From contig UQYV01000005.1 in NCBI GenBank assembly GCA_900545245.1, positions 24,922 through 88,921 on the forward strand: a stretch of 64,000 nt of DNA, read 5' to 3'. The position numbers and the translations under genes were made by a program. Shown here one piece after another: positions 9,173 to 56,096 of the stretch. Numbering within the stretch: the stretch's first letter is position 1; every line of letters begins with the position of its first letter. This DNA is from an uncultured Bacteroidales bacterium. Its GTDB lineage: Bacteria > Bacteroidota > Bacteroidia > Bacteroidales > UBA932. The notes beneath the pieces were generated by a model. It was given only the letters and a program-made list of their open reading frames with translations. It was not told the origin of the DNA and searched no databases.

Positions 9173-9304
9173 GTGCCGTCCAGCTTGGCATATTTCTGTG
9201 CCTCTCCCTTCCTTCGCTCCCGGCCTCGTCTCCTGTTGTCAGGACGCAGGACAGCTTCTCTCTCGTCAGCTCTCCCTGCCACTCTCGCCTGCCTTCGAGC
9301 CTCC

Positions 9305-14009: not shown

Positions 14010-14049
14010 AAAGTTGGTTTTTAAAATTTGGTTTATAACATACATACTT

Positions 14050-19822: not shown

Positions 19823-19852
19823 GCCACATCCGTGAAGATTTGCGGATGTGGC
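19823..19852 (+). terminator. Perfect 10-bp stem-loop GCCACATCCG-N10-CGGATGTGGC followed by TTTCTG; a terminator or attenuator-like structure
   Basis: Seen in the sequence, 90 bp upstream of the IPT/TIG gene start codon. Confidence 0.35.
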
Positions 19853-19944
19853 TTTCTGCGTGTTCACCGGAGCGCGCGGAGGTCTTTTCGCATATCTGCG
19901 CGGTGTGTTTCTCTCTTACGAAAAACAAATTAAACCACACTGTT

Positions 19945-21450: not shown

Positions 21451-21495
21451 TCTCCTGTGTTTCAGGAAATCGTGGACTGAAAACGGAATTTGTTC

Positions 21496-24400
21496 ATGGG
21501 AATTAAAAGAATCATCGCAACATTGTTTCTGCTGTGCGGCATCCTCGCTTCTGCGGCCGCGCAGCAGAAAATTACGCTGACAGGTCTCGTGACCGACACG
21601 AAAAAGGAACCGCTCATCGGCGCCGGAGTCGTGGTCAAAGGCTCGGTCGGCAACTACGCCATAACTGACCTCGACGGCCGCTTCACGCTCGAAATGGAGC
21701 CCTACAACCGCATCGAGGTCTCTTTCCTCGGCTTCAAGACCAAGGAACTGCTCATCAAGGAAGAGAAATATGTGGAGGTAACTCTTGAGGAGGACGTGTC
21801 CCTCGCCATCGACGAGGTCGTCGTGACCGCCAGCGGTGCCCAGCGCAAGCTCACCCAGACAGGTGCCGTGACCCCCGTGAGCGTCGATGCGCTCAAGACA
21901 TCCGCCACGGGAAGCATCACCAACTCCCTCGCCGGAAACGCACCGGGCATCATCGCCCGCCAGACAAGCGGACAGCCGGGCTACAATGTCTCCGAATTCT
22001 GGATTCGAGGCATCTCCACCTTCGGCGCCGGCTCAAGTGCGCTTGTGCTCGTGGATGGCTTCGAGCGTGACCTGAACCAGCTCAACGTGGAGGACATAGA
22101 ATCTTTCTCCGTGCTCAAGGACGCTTCCGAGACGGCCATTTACGGCTCTCGCGGAGCGAACGGCGTCGTGCTCATCACCACCAAGCGCGGCAACGAGGGC
22201 AAGGTAAACATCGACGCGAAGTTCGAGACAGTCTATAACACGCGCACCTACACGCCTGAGTTCGCGGACGGTGTGACTTACTCCCAGATGGTGAACGAGG
22301 CTCTCACGACCCGAAACCAGGAGCCTTACTACACGAGCGAGGAACTCGGAATCATCGCGGCCGGAACAGACCCTGACCGGCTTCCGAACACGGACTGGAT
22401 GAAGCTCCTGATGAAGGACGGTGCGATGAGCTACCGGGGCTCGATTAACATCAACGGTGGCGGCCAGAACGCGCGCTACTACCTCTCCGCCAGCTACCTC
22501 AACGAGGGCGGTATGTACAATGTCGACAAGAACCTCAAGAGCCGCTACAACACCAACGCCAACAACGAGAAGTGGAACTACCGCATGAACGCGGACGTGA
22601 ACATAACCCCGACGACCCTTCTCCAGATGGGTGTGGGCGGTATGTATCAGAAACTTGACGAGTCGGGTTCCACGTCTTCGGAGATTTGGAGCTCGCTCAT
22701 CGGGCAGACCCCGGTTTCGGTTCCGGCAATTTATTCCAACGGGCTCTATCCGGGAATGAAGGTCGGCGACGAGACCTATTCCGAGGTGAAGGTCAATCCG
22801 TGGATCCGCTCCACCCAGACCGGATACACCCAGCAGTGGTGGAACCGCATCCAGACCAACTTCACCCTCACGCAGGACTTCAAGTTCATCACCGAAGGGC
22901 TCAAGTTCGTCGGCCGCTTCGGATTCGACACCAACAACTACAACCAGATTCGCCGCTACAAGATGCCGGAGCTCTGGAAGGCAAAGCGCTACCGCGAGCT
23001 TGACGGCACCCTGCTCTTCAACAGGATTGACAAGCCGGTCGAGATGAGCCAGACTTCCTACAGCAGCGGCGACAGGAAGGTCTATCTTGAGGCCGAGCTC
23101 CGCTACGACAGGATTTTCGGCGACGGGCACAATGTCAGCGGACTTCTCAAATATCTCCAGGACTCCACGACCGAGACCATGTCCACCGACGGAGCGGATA
23201 TGAAGAAGGCCCTCGCCCGCAGGCATCAGGGACTTGTCGGACGCGCGGCATACAACTGGAAATACCGCTATTTCGTCAACTTCAACTTCGGCTACACCGG
23301 TTCCGAGAACTTCGCCACCGGCAGCAAGTTCGGCTTCTTTCCAGCTGTCTCAGTGGCATGGAACCTTGCCGAGGAGCCGTGGCTCAGGAAGCTTCTCCCT
23401 TGGATGAGCATGACCAAGCTCCGCTATTCATGGGGACGGGTCGGAAACGACCAGCTGATGGACTCGAACGGCAACAGCCTGCGTTTCCCCTACATGTACA
23501 CTCTCGGCTACCTCAAGGGCTACCAGTGGTCGGACTTCACCCAGAGCAACATCTACGACGGCAGCGGCATCGGCTACACCGGCACGGCTCCCGTTCCTCT
23601 CGTGACATGGGAAATCGCCGTGAAGCACGACGTCGGACTTGACCTCGCGTGGTTCAACGACAAGTTCACGATGACGGTTGACTGGTTCCGCGAGACCCGT
23701 ACTGGCATCTTCCTCAAGAGAAGCTACCTCCCGGGCACGGTGGGGCAGGATGTCGAAGTCTATGGAAACGTCGGCGCGGCCCTTTCGACCGGCCTTGACG
23801 GCAACTTCGCCTTCAAGCAGATGCTCGGTCCGGTGGAGATGACCCTCAGGGGCAACATGACATACACCCGCAACGAGGTTCTTGAGAAGGACGAGGGATA
23901 TGCGGTCTATCCGTACCAGCAGGAAAAGGGCTACCGAATCAATCAGGCGAAGGGTCTGATTGCGCTCGGCCTCTTCAAGGACTATGACGACATCCGCACC
24001 AGTCCAAAGCAGACTTTCGGAACATACCAGCCGGGTGACATCAAGTACAAGGACGTGAACGGCGACGGCGTGATTGACGAGGGCGACTATGTTGCAATCG
24101 GAACCACAACCGTGCCTTCGCTCATCTACGGAGCCGGTCTTTCGCTCCGCTGGAACGGAATTGATTTCAACATGCACTTCCAGGGCGCGGGCAAGTCTTC
24201 GTTCTTCATCAACGGTCCGGGCGTGTATGCCTTCAGCCAGGGAGAATGGGGAAATGTCCTCAAGTCCGTGGCGGAATCCGACAGGTGGATTTCAAAGGAC
24301 ATATCTGGAACCGAGGCTACGGAGAACCCGAACGCGTCATATCCACGGCTTTCATACGGCGGAAACGCAAACAACTACCGCCCATCGACCTACTGGCTCC

Positions 24401-24624
24401 GCGACGGCTCATATCTCCGTCTCAAGACCCTCGAAATCGGATATACCCTTCCAAAACAGATTGTCAGCAAGGCGAAGATGAGCGATCTGCGTTTCTTCAT
24501 CATCGGCTCGAATCTTCTGACATTCTCGAAGTTCAAGCTCTGGGATCCGGAGCTCGGAAGTTCGGACGGCGCGGCATATCCGCTCACGAAGTCCGTGACT
24601 GTCGGGCTTAACGTTAAATTCTAA
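21496..24624 (+). CDS. SusC/RagA-family TonB-dependent receptor
   Basis: About 1040 aa with a signal peptide, carboxypeptidase-regulatory-like N-domain, a TonB-box-like DEVVVTA, a plug and a barrel ending LNVKF. Confidence 0.9.
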   Translation: MGIKRIIATLFLLCGILASAAAQQKITLTGLVTDTKKEPLIGAGVVVKGSVGNYAITDLDGRFTLEMEPYNRIEVSFLGFKTKELLIKEEKYVEVTLEEDVSLAIDEVVVTASGAQRKLTQTGAVTPVSVDALKTSATGSITNSLAGNAPGIIARQTSGQPGYNVSEFWIRGISTFGAGSSALVLVDGFERDLNQLNVEDIESFSVLKDASETAIYGSRGANGVVLITTKRGNEGKVNIDAKFETVYNTRTYTPEFADGVTYSQMVNEALTTRNQEPYYTSEELGIIAAGTDPDRLPNTDWMKLLMKDGAMSYRGSININGGGQNARYYLSASYLNEGGMYNVDKNLKSRYNTNANNEKWNYRMNADVNITPTTLLQMGVGGMYQKLDESGSTSSEIWSSLIGQTPVSVPAIYSNGLYPGMKVGDETYSEVKVNPWIRSTQTGYTQQWWNRIQTNFTLTQDFKFITEGLKFVGRFGFDTNNYNQIRRYKMPELWKAKRYRELDGTLLFNRIDKPVEMSQTSYSSGDRKVYLEAELRYDRIFGDGHNVSGLLKYLQDSTTETMSTDGADMKKALARRHQGLVGRAAYNWKYRYFVNFNFGYTGSENFATGSKFGFFPAVSVAWNLAEEPWLRKLLPWMSMTKLRYSWGRVGNDQLMDSNGNSLRFPYMYTLGYLKGYQWSDFTQSNIYDGSGIGYTGTAPVPLVTWEIAVKHDVGLDLAWFNDKFTMTVDWFRETRTGIFLKRSYLPGTVGQDVEVYGNVGAALSTGLDGNFAFKQMLGPVEMTLRGNMTYTRNEVLEKDEGYAVYPYQQEKGYRINQAKGLIALGLFKDYDDIRTSPKQTFGTYQPGDIKYKDVNGDGVIDEGDYVAIGTTTVPSLIYGAGLSLRWNGIDFNMHFQGAGKSSFFINGPGVYAFSQGEWGNVLKSVAESDRWISKDISGTEATENPNASYPRLSYGGNANNYRPSTYWLRDGSYLRLKTLEIGYTLPKQIVSKAKMSDLRFFIIGSNLLTFSKFKLWDPELGSSDGAAYPLTKSVTVGLNVKF

Positions 24625-24642
24625 GGAGGGGAGATTATTGAC

Positions 24643-26739
24643 ATGAAGACATTTAGCAGAATTTTCATACCGGCGGCGCTTGCCGTCATCGGGGCGGGAA
24701 GCCTCGCGTCATGCTCGTTCCTTGAAGTTGACAAGTATTTCGACGAGCAGCTGACAATAGAGAAGGTCTTCTCGAACAAGGACTACACCGAGAACTGGCT
24801 GAACAACACGTTCTCGTACATGAACTATGTGGTCGATGTGTCCAACCAGTTCGGAACCGTGGAGAACTTCGCGGACGATCTCTGCTTCAACGGCAGCGAA
24901 TACACGAAGTTCAAGACCGTCTCATACGACGAGAGCTATCGCCAGAAGACATGGACATATTGCTGGCAGGGAATAAACAAGGCCTGCGTGTTCATCGCGC
25001 ACATCGACGGCAACACGGCTGTTTCCGAGGCGGAACGCGCCGACTACAAGGCCCAGGCCCGTTTCGCCCGTGCCTACTACTATTGGGCTCTCCTGCGCAA
25101 GTACGGCCCGATTCCGCTTCTTCCGGAGGAGGGTGCGGACTATTCGGACAGCTACGACAACCTCTCCATTCCCCGCCGCAGCTACGAGGAGTGCGCGGAA
25201 TACATCGCTTCCGAGTTTGCCCTTGCGGCCGCCGGCCTTCCTCTGAGGAGGGACGCGACCAATGCCGCCCGTCCGACGCGCGGCGCGGCTCTCGCCTACC
25301 GTGCGAAGGTGCTTCTCTATGAGGCAAGTCCTCTCGCCAACGGCAACGACGACGCCTACGCGCAGAGACTGCTTGACGATCAGGGAAACAGACTGCTTTC
25401 TCAGAATTATGACGAAAGCAAATGGGCGAAGGCTGCGGCAGCAGCCCGTGACGTGATAGAACTTGGACAATATGACCTCTACACTGCAAAGCGCAGGAAC
25501 TCGGCCAATTCGGACTATGAGCCGAAGACCGTGACTCCGTTCAACGACGGGGAGTTCTACAGTCAGAACTGGCCGGACGGCTATGCTGACATCGACCCGT
25601 TCGAGTCCTACCGCTCGCTGTTCAACGGAGCGGTGAAGCTCAACGACAATCCGGAGATTATCTTCTCCCGCGGAAAGAACGGCGCGAACGGCTGGAACGC
25701 GGCGGAACAGGAGCAGGAGGCATACGACCTTGCATATTTCATTCATGAGATGCTTCCTGTCGCTGCCGGCGGCTCAAACTGCATCTCGATTACTCAGAAA
25801 CAGTGCGACGCCTACTATATGTATGACGGCAGGGACCTTCCGGGCAAGGACAGCGAACTCGGCAGGGGCGACGGCTCGGCAAGGCCGGGGATGCTCTCCG
25901 ACTCCGAGGCAGCAAACCTCAGCTACTCTCCGCAGCTCGGAACGAACGCCGAGGTGAGGAAGAACATCTCCAAGCAGTATGCCAACCGCGAGCCGCGCTT
26001 CTATGCGAGCGTTGCCTACAACGGTTCCGTGTGGTACCGCAACAGCGAGGTCTATACGACTCCGCAGCCGCTCACTTCCAAGCAGTGCTGGTACTACCGC
26101 GACAACGTGAACGGAAAGAAGGCGGGAACATCCTCATGGCCTCTGACCGGAATAGGCTTCAAGAAATATGTCCATCCACAGGACTCGAACCTGACTTCGG
26201 ACTCCAAGATTCTTGACAAGGCCGAGCCTGCGATAAGGTATGCCGACATCCTGCTCTGCTACGCCGAGGCCCTCAACGAACTTGACGGCTCCTACAGCGT
26301 TCTTTCTTGGGACGGCAAGCAGACCTACACCATAAGCCGCAGCATCACGGAGCTCGAAAGGGGAATCCACCCCGTGAGAATCCGTGCCGGTCTGCCGGAC
26401 TTCGCCGACGAGGTTTATGGCGACAAGGTCCTTTTCCGCGAAAAGCTCAAGAGGGAACGCCAGATCGAGCTTCTCGGCGAGTGCCAGCGCTACTACGACC
26501 TTCGCCGCTGGAAGGATGCCGAGAAGGAGACGATAGACCCGATTTACGGCTGCAACATGAACATCGCGCAGTCCGGTTCCAACTCTTCCGAGGCAAGGCT
26601 CCTGTTCCATACTCCCGTGGAGATTCCTTCCGTGCCGGCGGTATTCGTCGAGAAGTCATATTTCTGGCCTTTCGCGAAGGATGAACTCAAGCGCAACAAG
26701 CGTCTGACGCAGAATCCGGGATGGAACGTAAACGACTAA
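24643..26739 (+). CDS. SusD/RagB-family nutrient-binding lipoprotein
   Basis: 698 aa with lipoprotein signal (LASCSF) and TPR-like SusD features (YYYWALLRKYGPIP); immediately downstream of susC. Confidence 0.85.
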   Translation: MKTFSRIFIPAALAVIGAGSLASCSFLEVDKYFDEQLTIEKVFSNKDYTENWLNNTFSYMNYVVDVSNQFGTVENFADDLCFNGSEYTKFKTVSYDESYRQKTWTYCWQGINKACVFIAHIDGNTAVSEAERADYKAQARFARAYYYWALLRKYGPIPLLPEEGADYSDSYDNLSIPRRSYEECAEYIASEFALAAAGLPLRRDATNAARPTRGAALAYRAKVLLYEASPLANGNDDAYAQRLLDDQGNRLLSQNYDESKWAKAAAAARDVIELGQYDLYTAKRRNSANSDYEPKTVTPFNDGEFYSQNWPDGYADIDPFESYRSLFNGAVKLNDNPEIIFSRGKNGANGWNAAEQEQEAYDLAYFIHEMLPVAAGGSNCISITQKQCDAYYMYDGRDLPGKDSELGRGDGSARPGMLSDSEAANLSYSPQLGTNAEVRKNISKQYANREPRFYASVAYNGSVWYRNSEVYTTPQPLTSKQCWYYRDNVNGKKAGTSSWPLTGIGFKKYVHPQDSNLTSDSKILDKAEPAIRYADILLCYAEALNELDGSYSVLSWDGKQTYTISRSITELERGIHPVRIRAGLPDFADEVYGDKVLFREKLKRERQIELLGECQRYYDLRRWKDAEKETIDPIYGCNMNIAQSGSNSSEARLLFHTPVEIPSVPAVFVEKSYFWPFAKDELKRNKRLTQNPGWNVND

Positions 26740-26750
26740 TCTGTAACATA

Positions 26751-27761
26751 ATGAATAAGAATATTCTGAAAATATGCATTGCGTTGCCCGTTCTCGGGGC
26801 GGCTCTCGTCTCCTGCAACAAGGAATGGGTGGAGGAACAGTACGAACACTACATCTCGTTCGCCACTCCGCTCGACTACACTGCGGGCACGAGCAGCATC
26901 TATGTCTCCTACAAGGAAGACGGGAACGTGACCTACAAGGTTCCGGTTATAGTGAGCGGCTCGACCGAGCCCGACAGCGACCTCGACATCCGCGTGAAGG
27001 TCGATAAGGACACGCTCGCGCTCATCAACGACGACCATTTCAAGCAGCGCGCCGACCTCTACTACAAGGAACTTCCGTCAAGTTTCTACAGCCTCGGCGA
27101 CGCGACTGTGCACATTCCGGCAGGGGAGTATCAGGGGACGCTCGACGTGAACTTTTCCCTCAGGGACATAGACCTCACGGAGAAATGGGTGCTGCCTCTG
27201 ATGATTGATGACGGGAACGCCTCCTACACGGCGCATCCGCGCAAGGACTACGCGAAGGCGATTCTCCGCGTGATTCCGTTCAACAAGTACTCCGGAAAGT
27301 ACAACGCAACGACGATGAACGTCTATATGGGCAATGAGACGTCCAACGCCATCTGCGTGACTGACAGGACGCTCTATGTCGTCGACGGCGAGTCCGTTTT
27401 CTTCTATGCCGGGCTCACCGACGAGGAACTCACGACATCGAAGCGCAACCGCTACAAGATTGTCGTGCGTTTCGAGGAGGACTATGACGAGGACGGAATG
27501 GGCAATGTCTTCCTCTCGGCGGCCGACCCGTCCCTGAACCTAAGGACAAGCGGCAGGCAGACCTACGAGATAACCGAGCGCAAGGACGCGCTCCAGCCCT
27601 ATCTCGTGCACCGCTACGTCACTCTGCGTCTGAACTACTACTACGACGACTTCACGACCTACTCCGACAAGGTGCTCACGTACCACGCGAAGGGCTCGAT
27701 GATGACCGAGCGCAAGATTAACACCCAGATTCCTGATGAGGATCAGGCAATCGACTGGTAA
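26751..27761 (+). CDS. PUL-associated surface lipoprotein, tentatively labelled DUF1735/DUF4361-like
   Basis: Lipoprotein signal (ALVSC), about 335 aa, positioned right after susD. Confidence 0.5.
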   Translation: MNKNILKICIALPVLGAALVSCNKEWVEEQYEHYISFATPLDYTAGTSSIYVSYKEDGNVTYKVPVIVSGSTEPDSDLDIRVKVDKDTLALINDDHFKQRADLYYKELPSSFYSLGDATVHIPAGEYQGTLDVNFSLRDIDLTEKWVLPLMIDDGNASYTAHPRKDYAKAILRVIPFNKYSGKYNATTMNVYMGNETSNAICVTDRTLYVVDGESVFFYAGLTDEELTTSKRNRYKIVVRFEEDYDEDGMGNVFLSAADPSLNLRTSGRQTYEITERKDALQPYLVHRYVTLRLNYYYDDFTTYSDKVLTYHAKGSMMTERKINTQIPDEDQAIDW

Positions 27762-27771
27762 TGCGGAGGAT

Positions 27772-29835
27772 ATGAGGAGTATGAATTTGACAATCCTATT
27801 CGTGTCCCTGCTCTCCTGTCTGACGCTTTCCTGCAGGCAGCCGGAAATCGCCGGAACAGACGATCCCGGGCAGCGCGAGCCATCCCCGCAGCCGGAGCTG
27901 ACGCTTGAGTCGCCGGACGGGCAGATTCAGGTGGAAATCACTGTCGGCAACGCCGTGTCCTACCGGATTTTCCGCAACGGGCAGGCTCTCACCGCAGATC
28001 TTACGCTCTCGATGACTCTCTCCGACGGGAGGGTCTGGGGACGCGGCTCTAAACTGACGGACACCCGGCTCAGTCATGTCTCGGAGAAAATCCGCTCGCC
28101 GTTCTACATCCGCAGCGAGGTTGACGACCGCTACAACGGCGCGGTGCACAGTTTCGCCGAAGGATTCGAGGTCGAGTTCCGTGCCTACGACGATGCCGTG
28201 GCCTACCGCTTCCGCAGCACGGGCGACGGGGATTTCACCGTGATGTCCGAGGAAATCGAATACCGTTTCCCTCGCTCGTTCACGATGACCGCCGCGCCGA
28301 GTCCGGGAGGCACAGGCTCGAAGTACGAGAATGCCTGCAACTGCTTCGAGAGCTATTATCAGAAGGATGTCCGAGACTTTCCTTCGGGGCGCATGGGACT
28401 TCTTCCCGTGCTCGTTGACATGGGCAGCCAGAAACTCTGCATTGCCGAGGCCGGTGTGCGCGGCTATCCCGCGATGTTCCTCACCAAGGGCAGCGGAAAC
28501 GCCCTTGACGGCTTCCAGACCCGTGTCGTGAAGGAAACCTCCCGCAATGAATACACCGTCAAGGTTCCGAAATCGTGGGAGAACTACATAGCGAAATGCC
28601 ACGGTGCAATGGACTTTCCGTGGAGAATATGCATGGTCATCGACAGCGACGCGCAGCTTCTTGACAACGACGTCATCTACCGTCTTGCCGAACCTTGCAA
28701 ACTTGCTGACATCTCGTGGATTAAGGGCGGAATGAGCACTTGGGACTGGGAGACGTCGTTCACTCTCGACGGCGTGGATTTCAACTCCGGAAGAAACGTC
28801 GAGACATATAAATATCATGTCGATTACGCCGTGAAGACGGGCATTCCGTACATCACGATCGACGCGGGTTGCATCCCGACGAACGGCAGCTCGTATTCCT
28901 ACGCCCCTTATCTCGTTCCGACGCTCTCGTATGCGAATGAAAAGGGGATAGGCGTGTGGGTGTGGATGGAGGCCGCATGGTTCTCCGATGTGCTCCTCTC
29001 CGGCAACACCGGGCGTTTCGAGACCCTTTTCCGCGACCTCGCGTCAATCGGAGTCAAGGGAATCAAGATTGACTTCTTCGAGAGAAACGACCAGGAATAC
29101 ATCGACCTCCAGTGGAAGATTGCCGAGGAGGCCGCGAAGAACCACCTGATGCTCAACTACCACAGCAGCCCGATTCCTCACGGAATGAACAGGACTTATC
29201 CGAACGTCGTGAGCTACGAGGCGGTGCGCGGACTTGAGCACATGAAATACGGAAACTATGATGTCGTCGCCGGGGCAGGCCCTGCCGATCAGGTGACCTA
29301 CGACGTGACTTTCCCGTTCCTCCGCGGAATGACCGGCCCGGTCGATTACACTCCGGGACTGATGCGCAACGCCTTCCTTGACCGGTGGAGCGCGAGCGAC
29401 CCGCGTCCGATGTCGATTGGCACGCGATGCCGCCAGCTCGCGGCCTTCGTTCTCTTCTTTTCGCCCGTGGGTACTATGGCCGACAACATCACGACCTACG
29501 AGAAGAACGCAGAATGCGCAAAGTTCATCGCTTCCGTTCCGACAGTCTGGGACGAGACCGTTCCGGTGAAGGCGAGCCTCGGCGAGTACATCGTCCTTGC
29601 CCGCCGCAGCGGTGACGACTGGTTCGTTGCAGGAATGACCGACTGGACAGCAAGGAGCATGACCATCGACCTTCCGTTCCTTGACGGAGGCGACTGGGAA
29701 GCCGAGGTCTTCGAGGACAGCGCCGGCGCCGCCACTTCATACCGCAGGTCGGTCAAGACCGTTGACGGCGCAAGAATGCTTAACGTGAAGATGCAGGGCG
29801 GGGGAGGCTTCGCCGCGCATCTTCGCAGAAAATAG
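27772..29835 (+). CDS. Glycoside hydrolase family 97 (alpha-glucosidase/alpha-galactosidase-like)
   Basis: The PWRICMVIDSD...CKLADISWIKGG linker resembles the SusB N-domain to catalytic-domain linker, and there is a GVKGIKIDFFE motif. Lipoprotein-type signal. Confidence 0.65.
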   Translation: MRSMNLTILFVSLLSCLTLSCRQPEIAGTDDPGQREPSPQPELTLESPDGQIQVEITVGNAVSYRIFRNGQALTADLTLSMTLSDGRVWGRGSKLTDTRLSHVSEKIRSPFYIRSEVDDRYNGAVHSFAEGFEVEFRAYDDAVAYRFRSTGDGDFTVMSEEIEYRFPRSFTMTAAPSPGGTGSKYENACNCFESYYQKDVRDFPSGRMGLLPVLVDMGSQKLCIAEAGVRGYPAMFLTKGSGNALDGFQTRVVKETSRNEYTVKVPKSWENYIAKCHGAMDFPWRICMVIDSDAQLLDNDVIYRLAEPCKLADISWIKGGMSTWDWETSFTLDGVDFNSGRNVETYKYHVDYAVKTGIPYITIDAGCIPTNGSSYSYAPYLVPTLSYANEKGIGVWVWMEAAWFSDVLLSGNTGRFETLFRDLASIGVKGIKIDFFERNDQEYIDLQWKIAEEAAKNHLMLNYHSSPIPHGMNRTYPNVVSYEAVRGLEHMKYGNYDVVAGAGPADQVTYDVTFPFLRGMTGPVDYTPGLMRNAFLDRWSASDPRPMSIGTRCRQLAAFVLFFSPVGTMADNITTYEKNAECAKFIASVPTVWDETVPVKASLGEYIVLARRSGDDWFVAGMTDWTARSMTIDLPFLDGGDWEAEVFEDSAGAATSYRRSVKTVDGARMLNVKMQGGGGFAAHLRRK

Positions 29836-29865
29836 AAAAATCATTTAATAAATTTAGTTAACTTT

Positions 29866-31380
29866 ATGAACCACAAATTTTTAACAATCGCAATGGCGTT
29901 CGCGGCTGTGGCTGCGGCCTCTTGCAACAAGGACAATCAGCCGGCAGGACCGGAGACCATTTCAGGCGACTTCTCGGTGAAGGCAACCATAACTGACGCT
30001 TCATGGGCGGAGAACGCCTCTATCGCGCTTTACCACTCGGCAGGCGACGCGCTCGTTTCAGACGGCGAGTTCAAGCTTTCCGGCGACGTGTTCAAGGGAA
30101 GCCTCGCCGAGGCAGTCGAGGACGGCAAGGAGTACGAGTGGATTGCCGTAAGTCCCTATGCCACGGGTGCTGAACTTTCGGCATATCCCGTTGAACTCGA
30201 CGGGACGACCGCTCCTCTTTTCGGAAAGGTGACGGCCGCTGCTTCAAAGACAGCCGCTCCTGAAATCGCTATGACTTCTCTTGCGGCTTTCGCGAAGGTT
30301 AATGTCAAGAATTCGACTACGGCTGCGATTGAAGTCTCATCTGCGTCTATCACTGCTCCTGAGTCAGAGAAAATCGCAGGAAAGTTCACGGTTGACCTTA
30401 CGGCTGCGGCGCCTGCGCTCAAGGCTGTGGAGGCTTCCAATGTCGCGGCATATACCGGGAATGTTGAAGTCAAGGCCGGTGAAACTGCCGAGATTGTATT
30501 TGCTGTCGCACCGGTGACTTTCGCCGCCGGAACTGAGCTTACGCTCAAGGTCGGTGAGAACGAGCACAAAGTCGCTCTTGAGGCCGAAACTGTCCTTGCC
30601 GCCGGCAAAGTGACTGAACTCGCGACAGTTGAGGAAAAACCTGTCGAGGTTTATCTCTGCGGTGACGCATTCGTCTGCGGATGGGATTTCTCCGATGAGT
30701 GCAGGCTCACTCCGAGCGAGTCCAATCCGAAGATTCTCAGCTGGACCGGCGATGTGGCCGGAAACAAGCAGTTCTTCGCTTCATTCGTAAAGTCTTGGGA
30801 CGGCACTTTCATAACTCCGGAAATCACAGGCCAGGAGAATGAGGACGCATATTATATCGTCAAGACGGAAATGGAAGGAAACCTCGTCTTTGACAGAACG
30901 GCGGAGACCAAGAAGCATTGGAAATTCGAGGTCGGCGGAAACTACACATTCACAGTAAACCTCGAAACGAACACATTCTCCATAAAGATGAACTCATGTG
31001 CCGCATACGAGGCAATTCCAGCTCCGTCAAAGGCCTCTCTCCGCGGCGAGGCGTCAGGCTCTTGGGACGAGCACGAAGGCTACATCATGACGCAGTCTTC
31101 CACGGACGCGAATGTGTTCACATGGGAAGGCAATCTTGTCACAGGAAAGGGCGGCGACGGCAAATTGTTCGCGCTTTGCGTGGTCTGCACGGGCTCTGAC
31201 GGCGACCACTGGTGCCAGACATTCGGCGAGGTCGGTCAGGCATTCGTTCCGGAGACCGGTTCACTTTCCGGCTACCTCTACAGCAAGACCGGAGGAGATG
31301 TGTTCCGCATTCAGAAGGACGGTACCTACAGCATCGTCTTCAACGCCGCGACGCGGCAGATAAGCATCACTGCGAAATAG
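29866..31380 (+). CDS. SusE/SusF-like surface glycan-binding lipoprotein (putative)
   Basis: Lipoprotein signal (AAASC), an Ala-rich beta-sandwich-like N-region and a C-terminal region with aromatic carbohydrate-binding-like features. Confidence 0.4.
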   Translation: MNHKFLTIAMAFAAVAAASCNKDNQPAGPETISGDFSVKATITDASWAENASIALYHSAGDALVSDGEFKLSGDVFKGSLAEAVEDGKEYEWIAVSPYATGAELSAYPVELDGTTAPLFGKVTAAASKTAAPEIAMTSLAAFAKVNVKNSTTAAIEVSSASITAPESEKIAGKFTVDLTAAAPALKAVEASNVAAYTGNVEVKAGETAEIVFAVAPVTFAAGTELTLKVGENEHKVALEAETVLAAGKVTELATVEEKPVEVYLCGDAFVCGWDFSDECRLTPSESNPKILSWTGDVAGNKQFFASFVKSWDGTFITPEITGQENEDAYYIVKTEMEGNLVFDRTAETKKHWKFEVGGNYTFTVNLETNTFSIKMNSCAAYEAIPAPSKASLRGEASGSWDEHEGYIMTQSSTDANVFTWEGNLVTGKGGDGKLFALCVVCTGSDGDHWCQTFGEVGQAFVPETGSLSGYLYSKTGGDVFRIQKDGTYSIVFNAATRQISITAK

Positions 31381-31398
31381 TTTAACGTTTATTCAGAA

Positions 31399-31441
31399 GG
31401 CCGGTGTCGCGGGTGTGAAACTCCGCTGCACCGGTCTTTTT
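31399..31441 (+). terminator. Imperfect GC-rich hairpin followed by a T5 run; an intra-PUL terminator or attenuator
   Basis: GGCCGGTGTCGCGG...CCGCTGCACCGGTC then TTTTT. Because of it, the upstream alternative start at 31415 for the next gene is unlikely. Confidence 0.35.
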
Positions 31442-31459
31442 GAAATTTCTTATTCTGTT

Positions 31460-32509
31460 ATGTGTAAATTTTTCGGCCGATTTTCGCTCTCCGCTTTTAT
31501 CGGAGTTCTATTATTCCCGCTGTCCGTAGGATGTTCGTCAGCACATGATGCTCCGGCGGCGGAAGAAACTCCTGTTTCCTACAATGTGCTCTGCCTCGGA
31601 AATTCCATCACTCGTCACGAGTATGCCGCGAGCGTCGAGTGGTACTCCGACTGGGGTATGGCCGCCTCAAAACCAGAGAATGACTACTGTCATGTGCTGG
31701 AATCGCTTCTTAACGGGAAATATCCCGGCTCGACCGTGACCCCTCTTAACATCGCCGCATGGGAGCGCAGTCTTTCCGATGACATCGACGGCTTCATCGG
31801 GGAATATGTCAGGGATAGGGACATAATTGTTGTCCGTCTCGGTGAAAATGTCACCGCCGAGCGGGCCTTTGCGCCTGCTCTTCAGAAACTTGTCAGTTAT
31901 TGCGTGGCTCATGCGAAGTATGTCCTTATCACCGGAACTTTCTGGAAATCGGAGATTAAGGAGGCGGCAATCGTTGAGACCGCCCGTCTCTACGACATTC
32001 CGTATTACCCGATTTCGCAGCTCGATGTTCCCGAAAACCACCCGAAGGTAGGGGACACGTTTCAGGACATAAATGGCGGGACATATCAGATTTCAAAGGA
32101 TTTCATCATCACGCACCCGAACGACAAGGGAATGCATGAGATTGCTGAAATCATTTACGTCGGCATAGAAGAACTCGTCGGCGGCAGAATCGGCGCGAGG
32201 GACATTGCGACGCGCAGGCATATTTCCGAAAAGATGCCGATGTCAACCCGCACGCGCACGGTGGATTCCCTGCCTCATCTCGGTCTTCCGTCTCCGTTCA
32301 GCGTACCGCAGGCCCAGGGCACTACATTCATGGATTTGTTTTATTGGGACACATATTTCACGAACCTCGGACTTCTGAGCCTCGGGGACATTCAGCAGGC
32401 GAAGAACAATGTCGATGATATTCTCTATCTTATTGATAAATATGGGTATATGCCCAATGCCGCGAACACGGGACTTCTGAACCGCCTCAGCCGCCTTATG
32501 CGAGTATGA
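31460..32509 (+). CDS. N-terminal fragment of a secreted SGNH/GDSL-hydrolase-like domain fused to a GH37 trehalase, interrupted by a frameshift
   Basis: Lipoprotein signal, a GDSL-type motif (LCLGNSITRH), then trehalase signature 1 (GTTFMDLFYWDTYF) and PNAANTGLLNR. The frame ends LSRLMRV* where a trehalase would continue NRSQPP. Confidence 0.6.
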   Translation: MCKFFGRFSLSAFIGVLLFPLSVGCSSAHDAPAAEETPVSYNVLCLGNSITRHEYAASVEWYSDWGMAASKPENDYCHVLESLLNGKYPGSTVTPLNIAAWERSLSDDIDGFIGEYVRDRDIIVVRLGENVTAERAFAPALQKLVSYCVAHAKYVLITGTFWKSEIKEAAIVETARLYDIPYYPISQLDVPENHPKVGDTFQDINGGTYQISKDFIITHPNDKGMHEIAEIIYVGIEELVGGRIGARDIATRRHISEKMPMSTRTRTVDSLPHLGLPSPFSVPQAQGTTFMDLFYWDTYFTNLGLLSLGDIQQAKNNVDDILYLIDKYGYMPNAANTGLLNRLSRLMRV

Positions 32510-33432
32510 TGGTGCGCGACGTCTATGAACGGACGGACGACAGGGGGTGGCTGCGCGGTGCTGTGGAGACTCTGAAGAAGGAATATGACTTCTGGATGAC
32601 GGAACGCGTCACTCCGAGCGGGCTGAACCGGCACTTCAACAGCGCGACGAGGACGGAACTGCTTGAATTTTACGGCTATCTCTGTTCCGAGCGTTTCCCG
32701 GAGATGGATGTTCCGCGGTCTGACGACGAGAAGGTGCGGATTGCCTCGAACTTCCTTTCTGAGGCGGAGACCGGCTGGGACTTCACACCGCGCTTCGGGG
32801 GCTGCGAGGAGGACTGCAATCCGGTGGATCTGAATGCAAACCTCTATGTCTATGAGAAGAATTTCGCGTGGTTTTGCAGGGAATTGGGGCTGAAAGGCGC
32901 GAAGGCATGGGAAAAGAAGGCGGAGAAGCGTCGCAGGCTGATTCAGAAATACTGCTTTGAGCCGGGCGACGGACTCTTTTACGACTACAACTACGTCACC
33001 GGACGGCGCAGCGACATCTTCAGCTCTGCCGTCTTCAATCTTCTCTGGGCGGGCATTCCGACAGAGGAGCAGGCCGCGTCTCTCGTGAAGAACCTCGGAA
33101 GGCTGGAATGTGCCAACGGGGTTGCCGCGTGCGAGGACGGTGAGCGCAATGCCGTCTATCAGTGGGACTATCCCAATGCCTGGGCGAGTTTCAACACTCT
33201 GGCGGTCGTCGGGCTTGATAAATATGGCTATAAGGCTGATGCCGCGAGACTTGCGGAGAAATATCTCAACTCAGTAAGTTCCATATATGGCAAGACCGGA
33301 CAGCTATGGGAAAAGTACAACGCCGTCACCGGAGACACCGACGTCAGGGATGAATACGCCATGCCCGGCGACTTCATGGGCTGGACCGCCGGCGCTTTCC
33401 TCGTCTGCTTCGACTATCTGTCAAAAAACTAA
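32506..33432 (+). CDS. C-terminal fragment of the GH37 trehalase. Its frame is open from about 32464 and reads ...EPPQPPYASMMVRD there.
   Basis: Trehalase signature 2 (QWDYPNAWA) and ETGWDFTPRF. A −1 frameshift near 32481-32490 separates it from the upstream fragment. Confidence 0.6.
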   Translation: MMVRDVYERTDDRGWLRGAVETLKKEYDFWMTERVTPSGLNRHFNSATRTELLEFYGYLCSERFPEMDVPRSDDEKVRIASNFLSEAETGWDFTPRFGGCEEDCNPVDLNANLYVYEKNFAWFCRELGLKGAKAWEKKAEKRRRLIQKYCFEPGDGLFYDYNYVTGRRSDIFSSAVFNLLWAGIPTEEQAASLVKNLGRLECANGVAACEDGERNAVYQWDYPNAWASFNTLAVVGLDKYGYKADAARLAEKYLNSVSSIYGKTGQLWEKYNAVTGDTDVRDEYAMPGDFMGWTAGAFLVCFDYLSKN

Positions 33433-33475
33433 AATCTTAAATCAAATAGTGCCGTTCTTTGCGGAATTATATTCC

Positions 33476-33483
33476 TACATTTG
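33476..33483 (+). promoter_or_regulatory. Internal -7 promoter box TACATTTG upstream of the GH78-like gene
   Basis: TAnnTTTG match 38 bp upstream of the ATG at 33521. Confidence 0.25.
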
Positions 33484-33520
33484 TAATGATTAGACATCTG
33501 ATTCAACACTAAAGTTCTCT

Positions 33521-35287
33521 ATGACAAAATTCCAAACATTTCTTGTCACGATAACCATTCTGCTCTGCGGAATAGGAATCCTTGACGCGCAGGAGCGCGA
33601 CGTGCGCGTCAGAACCTACATCTCGCCGGCCCGTGTTGTCTGGCAGAGCGGTGAGGGCGTGCAGCTTGCCGACGTGCTTCTGAAAGAGGGCAACGGGCAG
33701 CCCTACTGCAACAACGACACTCCGACATCCTACTGCATCCTCTCTTCGGAGAACGGTGCCGCCCCCGGAGTGCTGCTCGACTACGGGAAGGAACTGCACG
33801 GCGGGCTTCAGATTGTGACGGGGTGGTTCCCGGGCGGTCCGGTCAAGGTTCGTGTCCGCTACGGAGAGTCGGCGTCCGAGGCCATGTCCGATGTCGGCGG
33901 CAAGGGTGGGGCGACGAACGACCACGCCATGCGCGACCAGACAGTCTCGCTTCCGATGATGGGCGCGGTGGAAATCGGCAATTCCGGCTACCGTTTCGTG
34001 CGGATTGACCTCGCCGAGCCGGACAGGACAGTGAAGCTCAAGGAGGTGCGGGCAATCTCCATAATGCGTGACCTTGAATATGCCGGCTCGTTCCGTTGCA
34101 GCGATGAGCGTCTGAACCGTATCTGGGAGACAGGAGCCTACACCGTGCATCTTTGCATGCAGAACTTCCTCATCGAGGGCATAAAGCGTGACCGTCTCGT
34201 GTGGATGGGCGATTCCTACCCGGAGGTGATGACTGTGGCGACGGTATTCGGCGGCAACGAGGTCGTCCCCAAGACCCTCGACTGGATGCGCGACGTGACC
34301 CCTCTGCCGAATTGGATGAACGGCGAGTTCTCCTCCTATTCAATCTGGTGGATGCTCTGCCATCAGGCGTGGTTCCGTCACACCGGGAACAGGGAATATC
34401 TTCTTGAGTCGAAGGGATATATCTCCGGACTTCTCCGTCAGCTCATCGGATGCATAGGCCCGGACGGCCGCGAACGTCTCGACGGAATGCGCTTCCTCGA
34501 CTGGCCTTCGCAGGAGAATGAACTGGCCAAGAATGCCGGACTTCAGGCCCTGATGGTGTGGGCCATGCAGGCAGGGCAGGAATTTGCCGGAATCTTCGAC
34601 GATGCCGCGCTTGCAGCCGAGTGCGCGGATGCGGAGAGACGGCTGTCGAAGGCCGCTCCGAAAATCTATAAGGAGTTTCTTAAGTCAGGTGTCGCTCCCG
34701 ACGCTCCCGGCTCTAAGCAGGCGGCGGCTCTTATGACCCTTGCCGGGGTGACGGACGCGAGGAAGGCCGACCGCGACATCCTGAACTTTAACGGCGGGCA
34801 CGGCTTCTCCACATTCTACGGCTATCTGATGCTTGAGGCGATGGCCCGGGCGGAGGACTGGCAGGGCGCTCTCGACATCATCCGCAGCTACTGGGGCGCG
34901 ATGCTCGACCTCGGGGCGACGACGTTCTGGGAGGATTTCAACCTCGACTGGCTTCCGAACGCCGCCGGCATTGACAATCTTGTGCCGGAGGGTATGAAGG
35001 ACATCCACGGCGATTTCGGTGCCTACTGCTATGTCGGATTCCGTCACAGCCTCTGCCACGGCTGGGCATCCGGCCCGACAGCGTGGCTCAGCCATCATGT
35101 CCTCGGAGTGGAGATTCTTGAACCGGGGTGTTCAAAGGTCCGCATAACCCCGCATCTCGGCGACCTCGAATGGGCGGAAGGCACGTTCCCGACACCGCAC
35201 GGCTCCATTCACGTTCGTCACGAAAAACAGGCCGACGGCAGCATACATACGGATGTCACTGTTCCGGAAGGAGTGGAACTGAGGTGA
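33521..35287 (+). CDS. Six-hairpin glycoside hydrolase, alpha-L-rhamnosidase (GH78)-like
   Basis: Signal peptide; the KRDRLVWMGD motif resembles the GH78 catalytic (alpha/alpha)6 motif RERLGWTGD, and a C-terminal CHGWASGP is present. It is shorter than typical GH78 enzymes. Confidence 0.45.
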   Translation: MTKFQTFLVTITILLCGIGILDAQERDVRVRTYISPARVVWQSGEGVQLADVLLKEGNGQPYCNNDTPTSYCILSSENGAAPGVLLDYGKELHGGLQIVTGWFPGGPVKVRVRYGESASEAMSDVGGKGGATNDHAMRDQTVSLPMMGAVEIGNSGYRFVRIDLAEPDRTVKLKEVRAISIMRDLEYAGSFRCSDERLNRIWETGAYTVHLCMQNFLIEGIKRDRLVWMGDSYPEVMTVATVFGGNEVVPKTLDWMRDVTPLPNWMNGEFSSYSIWWMLCHQAWFRHTGNREYLLESKGYISGLLRQLIGCIGPDGRERLDGMRFLDWPSQENELAKNAGLQALMVWAMQAGQEFAGIFDDAALAAECADAERRLSKAAPKIYKEFLKSGVAPDAPGSKQAAALMTLAGVTDARKADRDILNFNGGHGFSTFYGYLMLEAMARAEDWQGALDIIRSYWGAMLDLGATTFWEDFNLDWLPNAAGIDNLVPEGMKDIHGDFGAYCYVGFRHSLCHGWASGPTAWLSHHVLGVEILEPGCSKVRITPHLGDLEWAEGTFPTPHGSIHVRHEKQADGSIHTDVTVPEGVELR

Positions 35288-35380
35288 GCATATCCTTGGA
35301 AACCTGTCTTTGAAAATAAGGGACAAATTCTGAAGCAGTTTATTTTTTTATGATTCTAAATCAATTTGTTACGAAATATC

Positions 35381-37312
35381 ATGGCACATAAATATATCCT
35401 TTTTCTGATGAGTCTTTCCGCGCTGGGTTTCGGATGCGGAGTGTGTTTCGCGGGGAACGGCAGAATGTCGAAGAATGCCGGGAATATGGAAGTGAAATCC
35501 GTGAAGGTCGGCGGATATGTCGGCGTGAGGATTGACGACTGTTTCCGTCATCGAGTGATGGAGCAGGATGTCGATGAGATTGTCGAGCCGTTCCGTCACA
35601 GGGTCGAAAGCTGGAAATGGAACAGCGAATTCTGGGGAAAATGGACGCTCGGTGCAATAGGCGCATATCGCTATACGGGAGATTCCGCACTTTACGACAA
35701 AATCGCGAAATCGGTCGATGACATCATCGCGACGCAGACTCCTGACGGCTACATCGGGAACTATGCCCCGGAATTTCAGACGAAAAAATGGGATATATGG
35801 GGACGGAAATACACGATGCTCGGACTCCTGAGCTGGTATGAACTCACGGGCGACCGCAGGGCACTTGAGGCGGCTGCAGGTGTTGCAGACCACCTTCTTT
35901 CACAGATTGGGCCGGGCAAGGCCGACATTGTTTTGACTGGAGACTACCGCGGAATGCCGAGCTCGACGGTGCTTGAGCCAATCATGAGTCTCTACAACAA
36001 GACCGGCGAACGGCGCTATCTTGACTTCGCGTCATACATCGTCGCGCAGTGGGAAACTCCGGAAGGCCCGCAGCTCATCAGCAGGGCCGACGTCCCGGTT
36101 GCCATGCGTTTCCCGCATCCGGACAGCTGGTTCTCATACGAGAACGGTCAGAAGGCCTACGAGATGATGTCCTGTTACGAGGGGCTGCTTGAGTATTATA
36201 AGGTTACGGAAAACAAGGCCGACTATGACGCCGTCCTGAAGACGTATTCGCACATCCTCGCGGAGGAAATCAATGTCGCCGGTTCGGGGAGTGCGGTCGA
36301 GTGCTGGTACGGCGGCAGGGCTCTCCAGACAGTCCCGACCTATCACACGATGGAGACCTGCGTGAGCTTCACGTGGATGCAGTTCTGCAGCCGGCTTCTC
36401 GCGCTGACGGGAGACTCGCGCTATGCCGACAACATCGAGCGCACTTTCTACAACGCCATTCTCGGCGCGCTGAAGGACGACGGCTGCCAGATTGCCAAAT
36501 ACACCCCGCTTGAGGGCTGGCGCGTCGAGGGCGAGAGGCAGTGCGGACTGAACATCAACTGCTGCAACGCCAACGGCCCGCGTGCATTTGCCATGATTCC
36601 CGCCCTTGCCTACCGCGCCGACGGAGACTGCCTCACGGTCAATTTCTACGGTGAATCCGAGGCTGATGTCCGTCTTGGCAAGCGCAGCTCGCTTAGGGTT
36701 GTTCAGACCGGCGGCTATCCCGTGTCTGGCGACGTTGCCGTTGAACTGTCTCCGTCAAAGCCCGCAGACTTCACGGTCGCCCTGCGCATTCCTGAATGGA
36801 GCCGCAACGCGAAGGCACGGATAATCAGCGGCACCGATACGCTCGCTGTCAGTCTCGGCTCGCTCGCCGCTGGAGAGTATGCAAGGATTTCCCGCAGATG
36901 GAAGGCCGGTGACAGGGTGGAGCTTTCCCTTGACATGACGGCCCGCGTCGTGGAGCGGAACGGCTGCCAGGCCATTGTCCGCGGCCCGCTCGTGCTTGCG
37001 AGGGATTCCCGTTTCAATGACGGTTTCGTGGATGAGGGTGTCGTGATTCAGACCGCCTCCGACGGCTCTGTTGAACTTACCCCGGTCGTAGGCGACGGCT
37101 TCGCGTGGATGGCGTTCACCGCTCCGATGGTTGTCGGCACCGACCTCGAAAACAACGGGAAGCCGCGTCAGGTTCACCTCTGCGACTTCGCCTCCGCCGG
37201 CAACACCTGGGACAAGTCCGTGCGCTACCGCGTCTGGCTTCCTAAGACCCTCAATGTCATGCGCGGCGAGTACCGGGCATACAACGACGGACCCGCAGAC
37301 TCGGCTCTCTAA
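35381..37312 (+). CDS. GH127/GH146-family (DUF1680) beta-L-arabinofuranosidase-like glycoside hydrolase
   Basis: Signal peptide. A Cys cluster (NCCNANGPRAF) resembles the Zn-binding Cys site of GH127, and ETCVSFTWMQF...GDSRYADNIERTFYNA resembles the GH127 core. Confidence 0.55.
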   Translation: MAHKYILFLMSLSALGFGCGVCFAGNGRMSKNAGNMEVKSVKVGGYVGVRIDDCFRHRVMEQDVDEIVEPFRHRVESWKWNSEFWGKWTLGAIGAYRYTGDSALYDKIAKSVDDIIATQTPDGYIGNYAPEFQTKKWDIWGRKYTMLGLLSWYELTGDRRALEAAAGVADHLLSQIGPGKADIVLTGDYRGMPSSTVLEPIMSLYNKTGERRYLDFASYIVAQWETPEGPQLISRADVPVAMRFPHPDSWFSYENGQKAYEMMSCYEGLLEYYKVTENKADYDAVLKTYSHILAEEINVAGSGSAVECWYGGRALQTVPTYHTMETCVSFTWMQFCSRLLALTGDSRYADNIERTFYNAILGALKDDGCQIAKYTPLEGWRVEGERQCGLNINCCNANGPRAFAMIPALAYRADGDCLTVNFYGESEADVRLGKRSSLRVVQTGGYPVSGDVAVELSPSKPADFTVALRIPEWSRNAKARIISGTDTLAVSLGSLAAGEYARISRRWKAGDRVELSLDMTARVVERNGCQAIVRGPLVLARDSRFNDGFVDEGVVIQTASDGSVELTPVVGDGFAWMAFTAPMVVGTDLENNGKPRQVHLCDFASAGNTWDKSVRYRVWLPKTLNVMRGEYRAYNDGPADSAL

Positions 37313-37368
37313 CCATTGCCCGTGCCATAGTCATCGCGCGGGCGACCGGGGCTGCTGTCCTTCGCCTC

Positions 37369-38067
37369 CTACTCCTCCGCCGGCTTCCAGTTCCTGTACT
37401 TCTCCGGAATCTCGACTACCGGCGGGTCTTTCCAGAACAGCGACCAGTAGAGCATCGGAAAGTCGCCGTCCTTCCACAACTGGACAAGTTCCTCCACCTG
37501 CGCGTCCTCGCCCTTCGGGTCGTAGGGCTTTTTCATGTCCTCATCGAACATCTTTGCCACACCCTGCCAGAATCCTGCGGTGATTCCGCCCTTGTAGCCG
37601 CGTATCAGCTCGTATGACGTTTGCCCGCTCTCGCGGTCTATCAGCTTCATGATCAACATCCCTTGGCTTACGGTGAGATTTCTCATCTGCTTTTCGAACA
37701 CGCCGAACAGCTCCTTCTGGAGATGGTTGATGTAGCGCTCCTTCTTCAGCCCCGTAAGATGGTCGGCCGCAATCACGCTGTCTGTCTCCTGAACCATCCT
37801 CTTCGCCACGAGCGCATAGGGGTAAGCCTTGCTGAAATTGTGTACGAGCCGGTAGTATTTCCTCCATTCTTTACCCTTCTGCTTGGGCATCTTCTGGAAC
37901 ACGCGGGCCGGCCTGATGCTGTCGTAATAGACGGTGTCCCCGTTTTCTACGGAATATTCCAGCCATCCTCCCGGCTTCGTTGGCCTGCTTTGCGCATTCG
38001 ACCTCACGGCATCCGCACCCCATAATGCGAGGATGACGAGAACCGATATGAGCCGGAGGCGTTTCAT
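37369..38067 (-). CDS. Secreted hypothetical protein, tentatively labelled DUF4294-like
   Basis: 232 aa with a signal peptide; about 230 aa is what I recall for this Bacteroidetes-specific family. Confidence 0.5.
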   Translation of the reverse strand: MKRLRLISVLVILALWGADAVRSNAQSRPTKPGGWLEYSVENGDTVYYDSIRPARVFQKMPKQKGKEWRKYYRLVHNFSKAYPYALVAKRMVQETDSVIAADHLTGLKKERYINHLQKELFGVFEKQMRNLTVSQGMLIMKLIDRESGQTSYELIRGYKGGITAGFWQGVAKMFDEDMKKPYDPKGEDAQVEELVQLWKDGDFPMLYWSLFWKDPPVVEIPEKYRNWKPAEE

Positions 38068-50164: not shown

Positions 50165-50300
50165 ACTTGTGGTTATTTTTGCTCGTGTTTATTGCAGCAA
50201 CATTTCGATTGCGCAACAAATTTGGCTTGTTTGTGCAAAAATATTCACTTTTTTCATCCCAAAATATGGTTTTGAGGAATAATTTCAGAAATATCGTGAA

Positions 50301-50327
50301 TATATTTGCGCAAACGATTGTGCAAAG
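50301..50327 (+). promoter_or_regulatory. Ribokinase promoter -7 box (TATATTTG) fused to an imperfect 20-bp palindrome TTGCGCAAACGATTGTGCAA; candidate LacI-family operator
   Basis: It has a central CG and 16 of 20 symmetric positions. A near-identical copy lies at 62391-62413. Further TTGYGCAA boxes at 50209-50216 and 50231-50238 overlap the reverse-strand LacI -7 box (CAAAAATA, 50236-50243). Confidence 0.45.
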
Positions 50328-50381
50328 TGTCTGCATTCTTTCCACAATCGAAATGAATAACCGCTAATATAACACTAATAT

Positions 50382-51284: not shown

Positions 51285-51330
51285 ACAAACATATCGTTAC
51301 ATTGGGAAATTAGTAATCTTATAGTGTATA

Positions 51331-52893: not shown

Positions 52894-52901
52894 CCACTGT
52901 T

Positions 52902-56084: not shown

Positions 56085-56096
56085 ATAATAACGAAT

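Follow-up and report, generated by a model that had tools for sequence, protein, structure and literature searches.

The locus

The 64,000-nt stretch analysed here (the window) covers positions 24,922 to 88,921, forward strand, of contig UQYV01000005.1 from an uncultured Bacteroidales bacterium (assembly GCA_900545245.1). Within a polysaccharide utilization locus (PUL), the + strand at 31460-33432 carries two open reading frames (ORFs) in head-to-tail order. ORF1 (31460-32509; open from 31415, with the likely ATG at 31460) encodes 349 aa, its codons starting at positions equal to 2 modulo 3: a signal peptide, an SGNH domain, the first ~97 residues of a domain related to glycoside hydrolase family 37 (GH37), and then seven out-of-frame residues (LSRLMRV) and a stop. 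ORF2 (32506-33432; 308 aa), whose codons start at positions equal to 1 modulo 3, one base behind the frame of ORF1, begins MMVRDVY without a signal peptide and encodes the rest of the GH37-like barrel, including both putative catalytic residues. The stop of ORF1 and the ATG of ORF2 overlap as ATGA.

Against the Pfam Trehalase profile (PF01204), residues 288-357 of ORF1 match profile positions 112-178 (E = 3e-13, 49.9 bits) and residues 1-304 of ORF2 match positions 186-510 (E = 9e-45, 153.9 bits). The gathering score is 21 bits, so that both ORFs pass the comparison that an earlier note on this stretch, made from the letters alone, had proposed. The two profile ranges are contiguous, and the ORFs therefore carry two consecutive pieces of a single domain. 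ORF1 and ORF2 are two halves of one gene, encoding a 657-aa lipoprotein when repaired.

The lipoprotein signal peptide (MCKFFGRFSLSAFIGVLLFPLSVGC; 31460-31534, +), read directly from the sequence, ends in ...LSVGC, and Cys25 (31532-31534) is presumably the lipobox cysteine, given what is generally known of bacterial lipoprotein signals. It is followed by a divergent SGNH-fold esterase domain (31535-32194, +; residues 26-245) and by a short GH37 catalytic domain that is interrupted by the frameshift (32195-33429, +; residues 246-657 of the repaired protein). The earlier note had read the gene as a fusion of an SGNH-like domain to GH37, and this is upheld by a structural model and Foldseek for the SGNH fold, by phmmer and Foldseek for GH37, and by intact orthologues. 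The motifs that it quoted are all present: GNSIT (residues 47-51), FYWDTYF (294-300) and QWDYPNAWA (568-576). So is the switch of frame that it described, with LLNRLSRLMRV* in one frame and EPPQPPYASMM in the other. Because the frame of ORF2 is closed by a TAA stop at 32437 and that of ORF1 by the stop at 32507, the change of frame is confined to 32440-32506.

Intact orthologues and the missing base

A search with the repaired 657-aa protein found an intact, single-frame orthologue (P0001; 657 aa, 96% identity, 100% coverage) that represents a cluster of 281 members, and further intact orthologues of 651-661 aa at 85-86% identity (P0002-P0005). Among the 15 members listed for the P0001 cluster, 12 have 657 aa and one has 658 aa; the last two are a 247-aa protein and ORF2 of the window itself (308 aa). 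All intact orthologues read LLNRSQPPYASMM across the junction. In the two contigs that encode P0001 (L004 and L005) the DNA there is AACCGCTCTCAGCCG, in longer context ...CTGAACCGCTCTCAGCCGCC..., and the window has AACCGC-CTCAGCCG, that is AACCGCCTCAGCCG, or in the longer alignment ...CTGAACCGC-CTCAGCCGCC.... Exactly one T is absent after 32485, CGC TCT CAG (Arg-Ser-Gln) in the orthologues having become CGC CTCAG in the window.

The lost T belongs to codon 343 (TCT), which encodes the Ser of the conserved NRSQPP motif. Comparison of L004 and L005 with the window and with L001-L003 places it on the + strand between 32485 and 32486, which sharpens an earlier estimate of 32481-32490. It is the sole real indel in the coding region relative to L004 and L005; two other alignment gaps, ~5 bases apart near the 5' end, cancel out. 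Around this site, within 32470-32500, the two alleles differ as CGCCTCAG and CGCTCTCAG. Alignment to the DNA of intact orthologues thus bears out the single-base deletion that had been suspected, and comparison with orthologues, which the earlier note had called for, shows the SGNH-GH37 fusion to be conserved and intact in them.

In this strain of Candidatus Cryptobacteroides, the window gene very probably carries a genuine and recent deletion of one T in a PUL-encoded SGNH-GH37 lipoprotein gene, as an ordinary case of strain-level gene inactivation. It resembles frameshifted pseudogenes of bacterial genomes and metagenome-assembled genomes (MAGs) in its single-base deletion, its stop seven codons on, its intact relatives and its want of a recoding signal; it stands out only in that its upstream half may still yield a functional esterase. 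In annotation, 31460-33432 ought to be entered as a single frameshifted gene, and no working GH37 enzyme should be credited to the strain.

Age of the lesion and its predicted products

Ratios of nonsynonymous to synonymous substitution (dN/dS, Nei-Gojobori method) between the repaired window gene and L004 were 0.24 for the SGNH part, 0.10 for the GH37 part upstream of the break and 0.06 for the GH37 part downstream of it. For the GH37 part of the window and of a further relative, L086, the ratio was also 0.06. Constraint is not relaxed downstream of the break, and the deletion is therefore recent when set against the ~4% divergence from relatives. Neighbouring genes of the PUL are full length.

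In the AlphaFold model of P0001 (pLDDT 84.3; > 90 in the GH37 part), residue 343 lies in a loop (329-347), with barrel helices 295-307 and 311-328 before it and helix 348-359 after it. The split separates or destroys two invariant segments, YWD (295-297) and S/Q/P/P (343-346). A ribosome that begins at the usual start codon would change frame at codon 343 and stop seven codons later. The resulting 349-aa lipoprotein would hold the complete esterase domain, followed only by the linker helix and the first two helices of the (alpha/alpha)6 barrel, and the remaining ten barrel helices, with the predicted catalytic Asp and Glu, would fall in ORF2. If made by re-initiation at the ATGA, the ORF2 product would be cytoplasmic and, without the YWD and NRSQPP active-site segments, should be inactive. 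The esterase half is possibly still made and active in the window strain, by analogy with the standalone versions that exist naturally.

The GH37-family domain

Residues 250-654 match solved GH37 trehalases in phmmer searches (E = 1e-38 to 7e-28), with E = 1e-38 to 2e-36 for Escherichia coli TreA/Tre37A (2JF4, 2JG0 and 2WYN) and the Enterobacter enzyme (5Z66). When the model of the GH37 part was compared with the PDB using Foldseek, the top 25 matches were all GH37 trehalases (E = 5e-26 to 1e-20), followed by GH63 enzymes; the GH37 matches (best E = 5e-26) have an rmsd of about 2.8 Å and 26-29% identity. Asp441 (in GWDF; 32779-32781) and Glu618 (in WEKYN; 33310-33312) are invariant in 44 homologues and align with the GWDF and EKY of the E. 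coli and Enterobacter trehalases, where we take their counterparts to be the catalytic acid D312 and base E496 of E. coli Tre37A (TreA).

Motifs in common with GH37 trehalases are YWDTYF, NRSQPP, GWDF, QWDxPNxW and EKY. Trehalases are marked by two signature patterns, PGGRFxExYxWDxY and QWDxPx[GAV]W[PAS]P. Only the YWDTY part of the first is present here, with QGTTFMDLF in place of PGGRFxE, and QWDYPNAWAS matches the second at nine of ten positions. The NCBIfam equivalog cut-offs for TreA/TreF are missed (185 versus 941 bits). The domain falls in a short clade of about 430 aa, named 'trehalase family glycosidase' at NCBI, in which the first ~100 profile positions are absent; compared with GH37 trehalases, the core is ~100 residues shorter at its N-terminus and the Pfam match starts at profile position ~100-112. 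It differs from them also in its lack of PGGRF, in its fusion to an esterase and in belonging to a lipoprotein whose gene lies in a SusC/SusD PUL. Membership of the GH37 family is solid, 'trehalase' here being the label of a family rather than of a demonstrated activity.

The SGNH-family domain

The N-terminal domain had been called GDSL-like from its GNSIT motif. The SGNH fold and the motif stand, but the curated sequence model is not reached: Pfam Lipase_GDSL_2 is matched end to end (profile positions 1-176 of 178; E = 0.0056) but at 17.6 bits, below the gathering score of 32.9. A search of the PDB with a profile of this SGNH family gave no significant match (best E = 0.27). The fold is seen in an AlphaFold model (pLDDT 90.9) built on 48 homologues, for which the top 32 Foldseek matches in the PDB are all SGNH/GDSL esterases (E = 1e-6 to 3e-3, TM 0.5-0.6). 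The predicted fold matches those of TesA (1U8U), EstL5 (8IK1), the acetyl-mannan esterase CEX (6HH9) and GDSL-like proteins of Bacteroides (4M8K and 4NRD).

As in SGNH hydrolases, the Ser of block I (Gly47-Asn48-Ser49-Ile50-Thr51; 31598-31612, +), the Asn of block III (Asn130, in Gly-Glu-Asn; 31847-31849, +) and the His of block V (His219, in His-Pro; 32114-32116, +) are conserved. Across the 48 homologues Gly47, Asn48, Ser49, Thr51, Gly66, Asn130 and His219 are invariant and Ile50 is nearly so (at least 90%). Unlike typical SGNH hydrolases, this family falls below the Pfam score, has no solved structure that is found by sequence and lacks the canonical Asp of the DxxH motif three residues before the His, where a nearly invariant Ile216 stands; there is no conserved Asp at -3 to -5. 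Asp222, after His219, is nearly invariant. SGNH enzymes with a Ser-His dyad are known, and the missing Asp does not exclude catalysis.

Homologues are mostly standalone proteins of ~238 aa from Alistipes and other Bacteroidales, some of which carry the NCBI name 'SGNH/GDSL hydrolase family protein'. A mixed alignment of fusions, standalone SGNH proteins and standalone GH37 proteins (A3) was discarded: in it the standalone SGNH proteins were misaligned (14-21% identity), and the only invariant columns were Glu466 and Trp617, both in the GH37 part. Another alignment (A4) was used for structure prediction. The intact orthologues thus present a poorly recognised SGNH family, missed by Pfam thresholds, that is joined to a short GH37 domain in a conserved PUL of Cryptobacteroides. 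In a Muribaculaceae MAG (L024) and two bins (L027 and L028), an SGNH gene 74-76% identical to this one stands alone, directly upstream of a GH127 gene and without an intervening GH37-like gene.

Variation of the locus among relatives

The fusion is real but not universal, being found in a small Bacteroidales group and in one distant 625-aa protein of the same architecture (P0110; 36-37% identity). Species-representative genomes that have it are those of uncultured Bacteroidales L006 and L007 (86% identity). In both (6021-9893) the gene order is GH78-like, fusion, GH127, and in the window (31460-35287) the fusion comes first, followed by GH78-like and then GH127.

Orthologues might have proved to be two naturally separate genes, which the earlier note gave as grounds for giving up the fusion; intact fusions in orthologues speak otherwise, but one close relative is indeed naturally unfused. 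In L087 and L088 (Logan assemblies SRR29133710 and SRR29134022), whose upstream PUL is 93% identical to the window in DNA, a standalone SGNH gene is followed by a GH78-like and a standalone GH37-like gene, and GH127 is absent. The SGNH protein (247 aa) is 97.6% identical to the window domain; the GH37-like protein (442 aa) is 81% identical and has its own signal peptide. Homology between the window and L087 breaks at 32194-32198, the exact boundary of the SGNH and GH37 domains.

A different change is found in L086 (ERR9880678; 4320-4361), where 393 nt inside the SGNH domain (window 31779-32171) are replaced by 42 nt. The product (P0007, and P0006 in an ENA sample) is in frame and 540 aa long, without SGNH blocks III and V; the GH37 part of P0007 is intact and 99% identical to that of the window. 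It amounts to a second lesion of this gene, independent of the frameshift. The window looks mosaic here, its closest match being L087 upstream of 32198 (93% nucleotide identity) and L086 downstream of 32172 (97.8%). The N-termini of P0003-P0005 (MTRKLLVLISLIS.CGCS) are similar to the signal peptide encoded by the standalone GH37-like gene in L087 (7759-7830; MTRKFLILLSLLSLCGG), and in the window, P0001 and P0002 the signal peptide is that of the SGNH gene in its standalone form (MCKFF...). The difference suggests that assembly or recombination of the fusion took place on more than one occasion. When all proteins of the PUL were compared by tblastn with 80 genome loci that contain a GH37-like gene or the SGNH domain, no universally conserved neighbourhood was found, and co-occurrence of the PUL proteins was detectable among close relatives only.

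Alternative explanations of the split

An error of sequencing or assembly, with the strain really having the T and an intact 657-aa fusion, is very unlikely. ENA ERZ28581275 (whose scaffold name includes SAMN05356878) and Logan SRR3737012 carry the frameshift allele with 100% identity to the window along 1973 nt, and Logan SRR3917698 does so along 1104 nt; these are the samples named by a look-up that collapses similar places. A protein identical to that of ORF1 (P0135) is on 6-9 contigs and one identical to that of ORF2 (P0121) on 6-10; records of the exact proteins come from NCBI, ENA and Logan, and about ten contigs (nine to ten) have the allele. The same deletion is present in assemblies that differ in pipeline and come from two or more run accessions. 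The site is not homopolymeric, the longest nearby run being 3 nt, and consensus deletions at non-homopolymer sites are rare in short-read assemblies. An identical deletion across pipelines and runs at such a site makes a random consensus error unlikely, even though one missing base is the smallest possible lesion, support for the deletion comes from assemblies throughout, and purifying selection downstream (dN/dS 0.06) would also be expected of an intact gene. Of the options that the earlier note had left standing, the best fit is a recent pseudogene whose PUL is otherwise intact; the recurrence of the allele in several assemblies tells against sequencing error, and a genuinely two-part gene is disfavoured by a split inside the catalytic barrel and by the lack of an export signal in ORF2.

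Such a functional split, in which -1 frameshifting restores the protein or ORF1 and a re-initiated ORF2 act as a two-part enzyme, is scarcely credible. The ATGA overlap of stop and start would allow translational coupling, and ORF2 keeps both catalytic residues; however, ATGATG is also present in the intact orthologues, where it encodes Ser-Met-Met, and the overlap is therefore accidental. The break falls within the barrel, between two invariant segments, YWD and SQPP, whereas the natural two-gene arrangement of L087 breaks at the domain boundary and gives its GH37-like gene a lipoprotein signal of its own. With ORF1 an exported lipoprotein and ORF2 lacking a signal peptide, the halves would be in different compartments. 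Moreover, the split is seen in one lineage only, and sampled proteins of the 281-member cluster are almost all of 657 aa. No slippery heptamer occurs in 32440-32506. A third explanation, rather unlikely on present evidence, is a selected loss of function in which only the esterase is wanted, at a hot spot that switches between fused, unfused and partly deleted forms. Relatives do show the intact fusion, the 393-nt in-frame deletion (L086; P0006 and P0007), standalone genes (L087 and L088) and varied gene orders, and the natural standalone 247-aa SGNH lipoprotein implies that the esterase can work alone. Against trimming, one allele in one lineage cannot separate selection from drift, and the esterase could be kept alone more cleanly with a stop at the domain boundary.

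A scan of 32434-32506 for X_XXY_YYZ slippery heptamers found none, as the earlier note had stated, and no homopolymer > 3 nt. Programmed -1 frameshifting was rejected, as the heptamer is absent and all relatives examined are in a single frame. In a scan of 31300-33600 for promoters and terminators, counts were not above those in shuffled sequence and none was near the junction. No compensating paralogues were found within the window.

Several points weigh against a genuine and recent deletion as the explanation, probable as it is. The search found no intact allele closer than about 97% protein identity, and the immediate ancestor is not in hand. Evidence for the allele comes entirely from assemblies, whose source samples may be related and whose reads may partly be shared; ERZ28581275 and SRR3737012 could represent one sample, and reproducibility is shown in at most one lineage. 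Furthermore, we infer the loss of the glycosidase and the fate of both products.

Possible role of the fusion

The intact protein would presumably be exported and lipid-anchored. Its SGNH domain may remove an acyl group from the glycan of the PUL, with Ser49 as nucleophile, His219, and an oxyanion hole formed by Asn130 and Gly66. The GH37-like domain may then cleave an alpha-glucoside-type linkage, with Asp441 as acid and Glu618 as base, and by family precedent would be inverting. The intact fusion belongs to the familiar class of multi-domain esterase-glycosidase carbohydrate-active enzymes (CAZymes) of Bacteroidota PULs, with which it shares a SusC/SusD-adjacent lipoprotein that combines deacylating and exo-glycosidase domains.

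Elsewhere, the GH37-like core is found with a C-terminal SASA acetylesterase domain (P0029), with a C-terminal GH78-like domain (P0087) and with an N-terminal GH97 domain (P0108). Those partners distantly match families that neighbour the gene in the window (23-24% identity; E = 1e-25 and 4e-33). That the core is repeatedly fused to esterases, GH97 and GH78-like domains points to something other than free trehalose as its substrate. Because the fusion partners elsewhere (SGNH, SASA esterase, GH97 and GH78-like) are the families that adjoin it here, we tentatively suggest a complex glycan as the target of the short (~430-aa) GH37 clade of PULs. It is possible, if doubtful as a whole, that this clade consists of exo-alpha-glycosidases that act on an acylated complex glycan together with an esterase, GH97 and GH78-like enzymes, rather than of trehalases for free trehalose, and that the locus is a hot spot of recombination, its parts being gained, lost, joined and separated from strain to strain. 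If so, the fusion gene marks an uncharacterised glycan-degrading module.

A literature search, which was not exhaustive, found no description of this SGNH family paired with the GH37 family. Nor did a search of the literature on GH37 in PULs and on the combination of GH37, GH97, GH127 and GH78 find a functional study of PUL-encoded GH37-like enzymes. The point of interest is the unexplained role in PULs of short GH37-family enzymes and their recurrent partners, the frameshift itself being routine decay.

Genomic context

The PUL (19840-37312, +) comprises SusC, SusD and co-oriented CAZymes. Its genes, all on the + strand, encode a TIG/NHL protein (19840-21450), SusC (21490-24624), SusD (24643-26739), a DUF4973/BT_3044-like protein (26721-27761), GH97 (27736-29835), a SusE/F-like protein (29866-31380), the fusion, a GH78-like protein (33521-35287) and GH127 (35366-37312). 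The GH97 protein is closest to the model for a retaining alpha-galactosidase (621 bits versus a cut-off of 800). Window positions 20000-38000, which hold the PUL, have a GC content of 0.54-0.60, and the flanks, including ribosomal genes and a second PUL, have 0.45-0.52. The PUL is thus compositionally distinct and may have been acquired horizontally.

SecY (43577-44914) is ~100% identical to an NCBI protein labelled Candidatus Cryptobacteroides sp. The S10/spc string of ribosomal genes appears to be split: L3, L4, L2 and S3 (5212-9099) end at 9099, and L16 (38455-38874; TIGR01164, E = 1e-55) follows only after ~29 kb, succeeded by short + ORFs up to SecY. These short unannotated ORFs between L16 and SecY are taken to be the rest of the ribosomal operon. 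Between the split segments lie genes for UvrC, an NMN transporter, FtsX, BacA, the PUL and DUF4294, and L087 has the same right-hand junction, from DUF4294 to L16. On the - strand, two neighbouring ORFs (13242-15831; 267 and 593 aa) have no Pfam match at E ≤ 1e-4.

A second sugar cluster (49151-63486) encodes a LacI-family regulator (- strand), a PfkB kinase and DUF4978/GH42-like proteins. It also contains SusC (52902-56084), SusD (56097-58067), a BACON-domain protein, a nucleoside hydrolase-like protein and a sugar transporter.

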